From a virus, in the IMG/VR virus record IMGVR_UViG_2554235475_000003, positions 1 through 28,407 of that record: a stretch of DNA of 28,407 nucleotides; one strand, written 5' to 3'. Below are positions 2,415 through 7,664 of this stretch, piece after piece. The first letter of the stretch is position 1. Each line of letters starts with the position of its first letter. The translations under genes were made by a program, and so were the position numbers. The notes under the pieces are model-generated. The model ran no database searches. It was not told the DNA's origin and saw only the letters and a list, made by a program, of their open reading frames with translations.

Positions 2415-2515
2415 TGCTGCGCCTGTGGACAGGTGACGGAGGCCGCTATGGGGCGGGCGAAACCAAAGCCCGTCACGCGGCTCCCCCGTCCCGGGTTCGA
2501 TCCCCGGCGTAGCGT
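2415..2515 (+). ncRNA. tRNA-like element (canonical T-arm and acceptor stem, no canonical anticodon arm)
   Basis: T-arm CCGGG-TTCGATC-CCCGG (2491-2507). 3' acceptor strand CGTAGCG (2508-2514) can pair with TGCTGCG (2415-2421) or CGCTATG (2444-2450). Followed by TTTT (2515-2518). Confidence 0.55.
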
Positions 2516-2558: not shown

Positions 2559-2666
2559 ATGCCCATCCCGTCTTATCGTTCGACGACCGACCAGTGCCCG
2601 GAGTGTGGCGCCAGCTACACCTCGGCGAGACCCTGCGACTGCCAGCCCCTCGCTGATGTCTCATGA
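2559..2666 (+). CDS. CPxCG-type zinc-finger microprotein (35 aa; CPECG...CDC)
   Basis: ATG at 2559. CPECG motif. Stop overlaps the next ATG (ATGA 2663-2666). Confidence 0.55.
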   Translation: MPIPSYRSTTDQCPECGASYTSARPCDCQPLADVS

Positions 2667-2977: not shown

Positions 2978-3050
2978 CTGCGACCTGTTCGACACCGTGA
3001 CACTCGATCGACGCCGCTCTCGCCGTCGACGTCGTCTCCGCCCGTCCCTA

Positions 3051-3063
3051 CTTAAAATATAAG
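3051..3063 (+). promoter_or_regulatory. Archaeal TATA box region (CTTAAAATATAAG) for the packaging/morphogenesis operon
   Basis: The only AT-rich island in GC-rich intergenic DNA, 35-45 nt upstream of the terS ATG. Quasi-palindromic (CTTA...TAAG). Confidence 0.65.
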
Positions 3064-3097: not shown

Positions 3098-3811
3098 ATG
3101 TCCACTCGCGACCGACGTGTCACACTCGCCCTGAAGTGGCACTATCTCGACAACCTCGACGTCGACCAGATACGGGACCGCTTCGAGGAAGAAGGGATCG
3201 GGTCGTACGCACGGTCGACGATCCGGGGCTACCTCAACGAGGAGCCGAAGGACGCGGTCATCGAGCAGATCGAGGCGGAACACGCCGACGTCCGCCTGCA
3301 GATCGCCGAGCGAGAAGAGCGGATGTACCGCCGAGCTCGCAGCGCCGAGAACGCAGCGACCGAAGACGAGCCCATCCGGCGTACCGTGCCGAAAACAGAC
3401 ACCGTCCCCGCGGATCGGGAGAGCCCGATGTCGTGGCCGGCGTGGGAGATCGTCGAGCCCGGCGATCCCGACCGTCCCGAGTGGGCCGAGGAGCGCGACA
3501 TCGTGATTCGGTTCGACGACAACCAGCAGACACAGCTACGCCCCGGAGAGCGCTACCCGGTCCGGTCGATCGACGGCTCACCGACGTACACGACCGAGAT
3601 GGTCGGCCTCGATCGCGACGTCGACGACCTACCGGGACAGGCGAGAGCCCGCCAGGAACAGTCCCAACACCTCCAGGCGAAAGGCGACGCCCTGGGCGTG
3701 TTCTCCGAGAAAATCGAACTAGAGGGCGACCTCGAACACAGCGGTGGGTTCGACGTCTCGATCACTCACCACCGCGTCACTGAGGAGGACACCGATGTCG
3801 ATAACGACTGA
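3098..3811 (+). CDS. terS: Terminase small subunit (putative)
   Basis: Directly upstream of and overlapping terL. N-terminal HTH (DVDQIRDRF...YARSTIRGYL), coiled segment, and C-terminal LGVFSEKIELEGDLEH tail typical of TerS. Confidence 0.7.
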   Translation: MSTRDRRVTLALKWHYLDNLDVDQIRDRFEEEGIGSYARSTIRGYLNEEPKDAVIEQIEAEHADVRLQIAEREERMYRRARSAENAATEDEPIRRTVPKTDTVPADRESPMSWPAWEIVEPGDPDRPEWAEERDIVIRFDDNQQTQLRPGERYPVRSIDGSPTYTTEMVGLDRDVDDLPGQARARQEQSQHLQAKGDALGVFSEKIELEGDLEHSGGFDVSITHHRVTEEDTDVDND

Positions 3812-5132
3812 GGGCGTCGCGGTCGACACCACGGGCGGCACTCTCGATCTCGACTGGGGGTTCTGGGACGCCCAACTCGACGCGATCACGGCGCTGGAGT
3901 CGGGTGCGTACGACGTCGTCAACTTCCGGGGTGGCTACGGCTCGGGAAAGACGATCCTCGGCTCGCGGTGGATCATGGAGAAGGCGACGGAGGTCGCCGG
4001 CTCAGACAACCTGATCATCGCACCCGACTCCAAGAAGGGCGGCCCGACGACGTACAAGGTCTTCTTCGAAGAGCTTCCGGGCGAGGACACCGTCCCCGAC
4101 GAGGGTGGCGATCCCGAGAACTCGCCGTTCGTCGACGAGTACAATCGGAACGAGCGCCGAATCACATGGTTCAACGGCTCCGTGGTCCGCCTCGGGAGCG
4201 CCGACGTCTGGAACCGGTACGCCGGCGGGGAGTTCAACGCCATCTGGTGCGACGAGGTCGCTCACTACGAGCACACCGACATCTTCGACCTCAACCGGAT
4301 GCTGCTCTCCCGGCAGCGCACCCGTGACGGACCGAACGTCACGCTCTGGACGTCGACGGGGAACGGGTACAACCAGTACTACGACTTCGTCGAGCGCCAG
4401 GTGACGCCAGACGATGACGACCTCCCGACGCGCCTCATAAACGTCGTCGCCGACTCGCGGAACAACCCGTTCCTCCCCGAGAAAGAGAAGCTGGTCCGGC
4501 AGTTCGAGGGAACGGAGAAGGAGGATCAGGGCCTCGCCGGCGGCTTCGCGGCCGCCGAGGGGCTCGTCTACTCGGCGTTCTCTCGGCCGACGCACGTCCG
4601 AAAGCGCGACGATGTCGAGATCCGGAGCAACTGGCGACTCTACGGGTACGACTACGGGTTCAAAGACCCGCGCGTCCTCCTCGAGATCGGCAAGACGCCG
4701 GCGGACCAGTACGTCGTTCTCGATCTGTACTACGAGAGCCAGCAGCCCGTCGAACACCTTATCGATCCGAGTGACGGCTCGGGCTGGATGCTCCGCGAGG
4801 AGAAGCCCGCGGGTGAACTCTACTCCGACCACGAGCCCGAGCACATCCAGAAGTTCCGGAACGCCGGGTACGAGGCCTACGCCGCGACGAAGGACCTCGA
4901 CGAGGGCATCGACGAGATGCGGAGCGTCCTCGACACCGACGTCGACGGTCGCCCCGGGCTCATCGTCCTCGAGGACTGCACGGAACTGATCAAGGAGTTC
5001 CAGAGCTACAAGGAGGACGATGTCGGGACGAGCCGGGCGACAGACCACGCCCTCGACGCACTCCGGTACGCCATCATGGGCGATCGGTACGTCGAGGAGG
5101 ATGACGGCGCCGGCGGTTCGGGGACCTGGTGA
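3795..5132 (+). CDS. terL: Terminase large subunit (445 aa)
   Basis: Walker A GGYGSGKT, Walker B AIWCDE, coupling motif TST, nuclease motifs YGYDYG and DHALDALRY. SD GGAGG at 3783-3787 supports the ATG at 3795. Confidence 0.95.
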   Translation: MSITTEGVAVDTTGGTLDLDWGFWDAQLDAITALESGAYDVVNFRGGYGSGKTILGSRWIMEKATEVAGSDNLIIAPDSKKGGPTTYKVFFEELPGEDTVPDEGGDPENSPFVDEYNRNERRITWFNGSVVRLGSADVWNRYAGGEFNAIWCDEVAHYEHTDIFDLNRMLLSRQRTRDGPNVTLWTSTGNGYNQYYDFVERQVTPDDDDLPTRLINVVADSRNNPFLPEKEKLVRQFEGTEKEDQGLAGGFAAAEGLVYSAFSRPTHVRKRDDVEIRSNWRLYGYDYGFKDPRVLLEIGKTPADQYVVLDLYYESQQPVEHLIDPSDGSGWMLREEKPAGELYSDHEPEHIQKFRNAGYEAYAATKDLDEGIDEMRSVLDTDVDGRPGLIVLEDCTELIKEFQSYKEDDVGTSRATDHALDALRYAIMGDRYVEEDDGAGGSGTW

Positions 5133-7644: not shown

Positions 7645-7664
7645 ACTGACCTCTTCAACATGAC

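Follow-up and report, generated by a model that had tools for sequence, protein, structure and literature searches.

Several RNAs that resemble tRNAs without decoding are known to direct the maturation of the RNA beside them. The acceptor/T-arm minihelix, together with an elbow formed by a GG loop and the T loop, comprises the features recognized by RNase P, tRNase Z, and CCA-adding enzyme. In the MALAT1-mascRNA system, cleavage by RNase P makes the 3' end of the upstream RNA and releases a small tRNA-like RNA, and in the TMERs of murine gammaherpesvirus 68 a tRNA-like structure lets the host tRNA-processing enzymes free a neighboring RNA. Plant mitochondrial t-elements are tRNA-like structures likewise used for liberating neighboring RNA (PMC1920247). 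Haloarchaeal t-elements, known from Haloferax, are tRNA-like, are cut by RNase P and tRNase Z, and in one instance (upstream of 5S rRNA in Haloferax volcanii) mature the 5' end of 5S rRNA (PMC4326828, citing Holzle 2008, 2012); they have also served to flank engineered crRNAs. The attP sites of the HF1/HF2 group of haloviruses are partial copies of host tRNAs and serve as DNA recombination sites (PMC8707807).

Here, we analyze a tRNA-like element at positions 2415 to 2515 of a 28,407-nucleotide stretch of DNA (the window; IMG/VR record IMGVR_UViG_2554235475_000003). The parts of the element and of its cassette described below lie on the + strand of the window. The window is a tailed provirus of the haloarchaeon Halorubrum, with coordinates 11005 to 39411 on contig 15 of a 3.1-Mb genome, and it corresponds to the Halorubrum aidingense provirus named in the figure 7 legend of PMC7911831. 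The large terminase (3744 to 5132) shares 97% identity with its counterpart in Halorubrum virus Humcor1 and 51% with the one in BJ1, and portal and Mu-F-like genes lie downstream of the terminase gene. The AT-rich sequence CTACTTAAAATATAAG (3049 to 3062), one of only four AT-rich sites within the first 4 kb of the window, lies about 40 nt upstream of an open reading frame (ORF; 3098 to 3811) that itself precedes the large terminase, and is likely the TATA box of the packaging operon.

The element folds as a four-way junction, whose parts are an acceptor stem of 6 bp, a mini D hairpin of 4 bp, a long arm built from three helices, and a T arm of canonical form. The acceptor joins GCTGCG (2416 to 2421) to CGTAGC (2508 to 2513) in six Watson-Crick pairs, and its 3' strand continues with G2514 and T2515, without an encoded CCA. 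A TTTT run (2515 to 2518), the only stretch of at least four T in the interval from 2000 to 2700, starts at the last base of the element. The mini D-like hairpin, CCTG-TGGA-CAGG (2422 to 2433), is 100% paired in homologs and has two covarying pairs, and both G of its loop are invariant. In place of an anticodon arm, RNAalifold and the alignments place a long arm of about 55 nt (2435 to 2490) built from stem A (GACGG/CCGTC; 2435 to 2439 with 2486 to 2490), stem B (2442 to 2446 with 2477 to 2481, within GGCCGC/GCGGCT at 2441 to 2446 and 2477 to 2482), an internal loop in which TATGG (2447 to 2451) faces AC (2475 and 2476), and stem C, GGCGGGC-GAAACCAAA-GCCCGTC (2452 to 2458 with 2468 to 2474), whose apical loop GAAACCAAA is 9 nt long (2459 to 2467). 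The T arm, CCGGG/TTCGATC/CCCGG (2491 to 2507; stem, 2491 to 2495 with 2503 to 2507), closes the junction. All of the pairings listed by a first-pass annotation of this DNA are present at their coordinates (the T arm, CGTAGCG at 2508 to 2514, TGCTGCG at 2415 to 2421, CCTG-TGGA-CAGG, and the long arm). Its description of the T arm as canonical, with loop TTCGATC, also holds, and this arm covaries in homologs.

Several of these parts are constant among homologs. The GGTTCGA of the T loop (GTTCGANNC) and the GG of the 4-nt D-like loop are invariant in the alignment, and the discriminator position is variable. In the elbow of a tRNA, G18 and G19 contact residues 55 and 56; thus, the invariant GG loop and the GGTTCGA T loop match what a tRNA-type elbow requires. 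T2415, just before the acceptor, is also invariant, and at this seventh acceptor position the U faces a C in 15 of 17 homologs; it forms a U-G pair (with G2514) only in the window and one other sequence. In the long arm, the internal loop (C)UAUNGG/AC and the apical loop are conserved across genera, the apical loops being of GA..AA form (GAAACCAAA in the window, GACAA in the distant contigs L140 and L141). The UAUGG sequence (2447 to 2451) matches one strand of the well-known 11-nt receptor for GAAA tetraloops, and this internal loop and the GA..AA apices hint at tertiary RNA-RNA contacts. A K-turn was considered for the UAUGG/AC loop and set aside as off consensus, by eye only.

Conservation of this fold was established by comparison with related viruses. 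An unannotated gap after tRNA-Phe in BJ1 and Humcor1 aligns with this region of the window, and RNAalifold recovers the four-way junction independently from three sequences, with compensatory changes in 12 of 32 pairs. A first scan of viral contigs with the 14-mer CCGTTTCCACTCCA gave at least 118 matches, mostly due to chance, and because it was too unspecific it was replaced by a structured-pattern scan of IMG/VR, which yielded 17 contigs; 17 distinct sequences were aligned. Standard pairs fill 97.0% of the pair cells in this alignment, versus 40 to 45% in slid controls, every helix covaries, and 15 of the 32 pairs show compensatory changes. A covariance model built from the alignment found 30 instances, 26 of them distinct. 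With these 26 homologs, the proportion of standard pair cells is 98.1% (versus 35 to 42% in slid controls), the number of pairs with compensatory changes rises to 24 of 32, and covariation supports each of the six helices. The homologs come from BJ1, Humcor1, IMG/VR viral contigs, the genomes of seven Halorubrum species, and three other genera of the family. Many pairs are G-U, and the RNA is therefore assigned to the + strand. Judged from these alignments, the element is genuine and subject to selection.

Only viruses and proviruses carry the element, and its distribution is sporadic. The covariance model matches 4 of the 151 genomes of the family that were searched, and the element occurs in seven Halorubrum species genomes. 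When 185,579 species representatives were screened with a strict apical-loop pattern, only Halorubrum genomes passed the model, and 31 bacterial pattern matches, none of which gave a score with the covariance model, were dropped. HRTV-DL1 and HRTV-28, whose large terminases are 55 to 61% identical, have no element in the stretches around the terminase (9.1 kb and 2.2 kb, respectively). A search of the host genome with the model returned, besides the element, only a normal tRNA-Arg, and the element has no detectable sequence or profile relation to t-elements.

The element is part of a cassette with a conserved order: a small ORF, tRNA-Phe, a structured RNA of about 160 nt, the tRNA-like element, a leader, and the next gene. 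The small ORF (2012 to 2191) encodes a 59-aa protein of unknown function (phrog_37636), which is a candidate partner of the RNA, and its TAG stop codon (2189 to 2191) lies inside the 5' end of tRNA-Phe(GAA) (2181 to 2256; detected by ARAGORN and Rfam), the 5' bracket of the cassette. All 18 viral contigs found via this ORF also carry the element, downstream of the ORF. Searches of the flanking small proteins against Pfam and PHROGs returned families of unknown function only.

Between the tRNA-Phe and the element (2257 to 2414) lies the unannotated structured RNA of about 160 nt, with conserved blocks CCAGGTCA (2287 to 2294) and ACGAGCGNCCGG. Its domain I (2258 to 2305) consists of helix Pa (2258 to 2267 with 2295 to 2305), which begins 2 nt past the end of tRNA-Phe, and hairpin Pb (2271 to 2286), and helices 1 to 3 of the domain covary. 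The long-range helix P2 joins GCGACCGG (2321 to 2328) to CCGGTCGC (2405 to 2412); its 8 bp are 100% paired in 17 sequences, with three covarying pairs, and it ends 3 nt upstream of the acceptor, separated from it by an almost invariant 3-nt linker (CTT, 2413 to 2415). Both P2 and Pa are retained in the divergent contigs L141 and L142. Across the full cassette, an alignment with 51 pairs in 10 helices is 97.2% paired, versus 38 to 47% in slid controls. A permissive Rfam search with the whole cassette in six homologs found no known family for the RNA of about 160 nt, and no covariation was found between the element and the upstream RNA domains. A crude exact-match test of whether an exposed part of the RNA corresponds to the start of an early mRNA gave no direct or complementary identity of at least 14 nt elsewhere in the contig, and the shorter matches were few enough to be attributed to chance. 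Two other readings of this region were rejected. A hammerhead or box C/D RNA had been prompted by CTGATGA (2276 to 2282), a motif that is unconserved in homologs, and coding by a small ORF across 2306 to 2436 or by a 93-aa ORF (2385 to 2666) conflicts with homolog indels that are not multiples of three and with conservation that tracks the helices.

The tRNA-like element is present in every cassette, whatever the 5' bracket, and the 5' bracket itself can be exchanged. Most relatives have tRNA-Phe in this position, L123 has tRNA-Trp, and no bracket is detected in L141 and L142; L122, L127, L133, and L140 have instead a mini element of acceptor and T arm, with weak Rfam matches to mascRNA and tmRNA-TLD. 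The mini element (L133, 1700 to 1750; L122, 1860 to 1910; L140, 1277 to 1322) combines an acceptor, a small hairpin with a GG loop, and a T arm and has no anticodon arm; in the tRNA-Phe slot, it likewise overlaps the stop codon of the upstream ORF.

Downstream of the element, a conserved leader, ACCCCACCGTTTCCACTCCAAATG (2538 to 2561), terminates with the start codon of the gene that follows. It is near-invariant before different genes, namely, an ORF for a 35-aa zinc-ribbon protein in the window (2559 to 2666) and the ORF43 exonuclease in BJ1. The leader, ACCCCNCCGTTTCCACTCCA(G/A)ATG, is preserved in Humcor1 although the start codon there is lost (ATA), and it contains CCUCC, which resembles an anti-Shine-Dalgarno sequence. 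No AT-rich TATA-like element occurs between positions 1395 and 3049 of the window. Because of this, and because the stop codon of the 59-aa ORF lies inside the tRNA, the cassette is probably transcribed with the upstream genes, and we consider it probably cotranscribed with the genes that flank it.

Weighing these features together, we tentatively favor the explanation that the element is an RNase P/tRNase Z processing module, tRNA-shaped but non-decoding, that forms the 3' bracket of a viral RNA cassette, and we put its probability at slightly less than even. The features read by these enzymes are conserved, those needed for decoding and charging are absent or variable, and haloarchaea have t-elements, all of which makes a processing module the most likely explanation. 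The first-pass annotation had proposed a processing signal, a conformational switch, or a decoy, and the first of these is the best supported by inference, given the conserved minihelix and elbow and the position as the 3' bracket. The structure has what defines a t-element, an acceptor set on a canonical T arm with no decoding function, and both the 6-bp acceptor and the 5-bp T stem covary. The viral element and the haloarchaeal t-elements also share a host group, and each is a non-decoding tRNA-like fold beside an RNA whose end it would define. The viral element differs in having the three-helix long arm and the mini D hairpin, and its cleavage here is only putative. The TMERs and plant t-elements belong to other domains of life and depend on other polymerases, and in them the released RNA follows the tRNA-like part, whereas the invariant element described here is located 3' of the RNA that it would free.

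We infer the following course of events. Host RNase P would cut at the 5' side of the element and thereby create the 3' end of the structured RNA, 2 to 3 nt past P2. A tRNase Z cut after the discriminator would free the downstream mRNA, and the element would come free as an approximately 100-nt RNA that probably receives a CCA end. MALAT1-mascRNA and the haloarchaeal t-elements follow this same logic. The variable discriminator argues against specific aminoacylation of this product. The U-C mismatch that follows the 6 bp of the acceptor, or the placement of P2 only 3 nt upstream, could hinder RNase P or point to an element that remains attached to the RNA upstream.

A bare processing signal needs the minihelix only. 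The long arm and its loops are conserved across genera, and processing alone is therefore insufficient as an explanation of the whole element. This conservation suggests a second role for the long arm or a lasting connection between the element and the upstream RNA. Under the latter alternative, the element would be the uncut 3' domain of one continuous non-coding RNA (about 270 nt, approximately 2257 to 2515), in which the tRNA shape would serve folding, protection or CCA tagging of the 3' end, or recruitment of a protein. It gains from the way P2 adjoins the element through the linker and from long arm and loops conserved as strongly as the upstream domains, and the GA..AA apical loops and the UAUGG internal loop might form tertiary contacts within such a molecule. 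However, the acceptor, T arm, and elbow are exactly the set that RNase P targets, known modules of this type (t-elements and mascRNA) are cleaved, and the absence of detected covariation between the element and the upstream domains weighs in the same direction. We regard a single uncut RNA as unlikely, while still giving it real weight.

A broader interpretation is also conceivable. The element and the RNA of about 160 nt may belong to an undescribed class of riboregulator or ribonucleoprotein of archaeal viruses, in which the tRNA frame would provide processing by host enzymes and stability, and the conserved long arm, through its UAUNGG/AC loop and GA..AA apex, would be the binding site of a specific partner, of viral or host origin, that governs the switch to packaging and late gene expression. 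The 59-aa protein, or a translation or packaging factor, might be such a partner. This is a speculative proposal, to which we assign a low probability.

Retention of the top half of a tRNA without a decoding function, in an element confined to viruses and proviruses, would also be expected of a decoy or sponge for proteins that bind the tRNA elbow or acceptor end, such as defense nucleases, toxins that act on the acceptor end, CCA-adding enzyme, or modification enzymes. Against this, the element lacks an anticodon loop, is present in one copy per genome in the middle of an operon, and has no link to any defense or antidefense gene. The lack of an anticodon loop makes mimicry of anticodon-nuclease substrates impossible, and the suggestion of the first-pass annotation that the element is a decoy for such nucleases is thus unlikely. 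We consider the decoy explanation as a whole improbable.

The same annotation had drawn two alternative acceptor stems, one giving the form of about 100 nt and the other a 72-nt form, and it had raised the possibility of a conformational switch. The larger form is conserved, with an acceptor of 6 bp rather than 7 bp. The smaller form is not conserved. Both 7-bp pairings are possible in the window copy, but the pairing of CGCTATG (2444 to 2450) with 2508 to 2514 is complete in that copy only. Over 17 homologs, it has 59.7% paired cells, a value equaled in 281 of 500 shuffles, and shows no useful covariation; at one pair position, 15 of the 17 sequences have C-C. Folded alone, the 72-nt form has a z score of -1.3, no better than shuffles. 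By this comparison, the 72-nt acceptor is a chance feature of the window copy. As the second pairing is unconserved and no better than shuffled sequence, the switch idea fails, and we judge it very improbable.

The element is also distinct from the described families of tRNA-like molecules. ARAGORN and Rfam detect only the tRNA-Phe(GAA) at 2181 to 2256 and nothing at 2415 to 2515, where the Rfam tRNA model is silent even in a permissive search; that ARAGORN makes no call there had been anticipated. Membership in the tRNA family (RF00005) was rejected on this basis, with no call by ARAGORN in standard mode or by Rfam. With canonical tRNAs, including intron-containing tRNAs and tRNA-Sec, the element shares a T arm, an acceptor, a four-way junction, and GG in a D-like loop. 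It differs in its 4-nt D loop and 6-bp acceptor, and the alignment contains no 7-nt anticodon loop, U33, conserved anticodon, variable region, or residues 8 and 9, and no bulge-helix-bulge, which bears out the initial observation that an anticodon arm is missing. That annotation had allowed that the homologs might be ordinary tRNA genes and the window copy simply decayed. All 26 of the 26 distinct homologs instead share the noncanonical design and the same fold, with compensatory changes in 24 of 32 pairs, and the element is thus not a decayed tRNA or tRNA pseudogene. A tmRNA was rejected as well, since ARAGORN finds none and the acceptor strands are about 90 nt apart with no tag ORF between them. 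The Rfam matches that fall below threshold are all to tRNA-like families (mascRNA-menRNA at 22 bits; tRNA-Sec at 22 to 26 bits in homologs). The best resemblance, though weak, is to MALAT1-mascRNA/MEN-beta-menRNA (RF01684), which scores 22.1 bits at 2444 to 2514 against a gathering threshold of 42.5 and was rejected as a family assignment. Those systems likewise consist of a structured non-coding RNA followed by a tRNA-like element, but they are vertebrate nuclear RNAs, the likeness is convergent and not homologous, and the match spans the nonconserved 72-nt form.

An unusual decoding tRNA with an archaeal intron in the anticodon arm is similarly very improbable. In intron mode, ARAGORN calls a tRNA-Leu(GAG) with a 24-nt intron in contigs L128 and L131, and the 3' strand of stem C in Humcor1-type sequences, CUGAGAC, resembles an anticodon loop. 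That stretch, however, is one strand of a covarying helix, stem C, and its sequence is CCUCUAC in BJ1 but CCGUCAC in the window, such that the identity of the "anticodon" would differ between close relatives, without a U33 or a variable region. The proposed splice site falls within a helix, and the internal loops (2 by 4 nt and 5 to 6 by 2 nt) are 5 bp apart, whereas a bulge-helix-bulge has 3-nt bulges separated by 4 bp. Whatever is excised, the loops left behind lack U33 and carry "anticodons" that are not conserved. The same mode calls neither the window copy nor 14 other distinct homologs, and the Rfam tRNA model is also blank. The tRNA-Leu(GAG)-plus-intron label on L128 and L131 is a false call that automatic annotation could propagate.

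Finally, "tRNA-like" sequences in haloviruses such as HF2 are usually explained as attP. Although tRNA-like attP sequences are shown in halovirus papers (PMC8707807 and PMC7230728) and viruses of the BJ1 type carry integrase genes and use tRNA genes as integration targets (PMC8651126), we consider it extremely improbable that the element is a viral attP site copied in part from a host tRNA, because it is intact and single copy in the host genome, where its only match is itself and no host tRNA, lies about 4.6 kb inside the provirus by the published coordinates (PMC7911831) and about 6 kb from the integrase in BJ1 (PMC2194725), and evolves as an RNA structure, its stems covarying with G-U pairs included, which indicates an RNA and not a DNA site. 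A possible integration site is the host tRNA-Thr(CGT) at 7662 to 7734 of contig 15, which precedes the published left boundary of the provirus by about 1 kb. No repeat matching this tRNA occurs within the window, and contig 15 ends inside the provirus.

To our knowledge, very few non-coding RNAs have been reported from archaeal viruses. Neither the element nor the cassette has a family in Rfam. Only the tRNA-Phe is mentioned in the BJ1 and Humcor1 papers and in a survey of archaeal tailed viruses, and we found no description of the element in the literature. For genome annotation, the element carries a warning that such sequences are not pseudo-tRNAs, intron-containing tRNAs, or attP sites.

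The element family combines unusually clean covariation with the availability of a cultivable virus, BJ1, and an inducible provirus, Humcor1 of Halorubrum coriense. The processing model predicts defined RNase P and tRNase Z cuts, and these are testable by ordinary RNA mapping. If confirmed, they would mean that archaeal viruses punctuate polycistronic transcripts by tRNA mimicry and in this way mature a dedicated structured RNA. The element would then be a natural viral case of the t-element principle, which is already a tool of Haloferax genetics.
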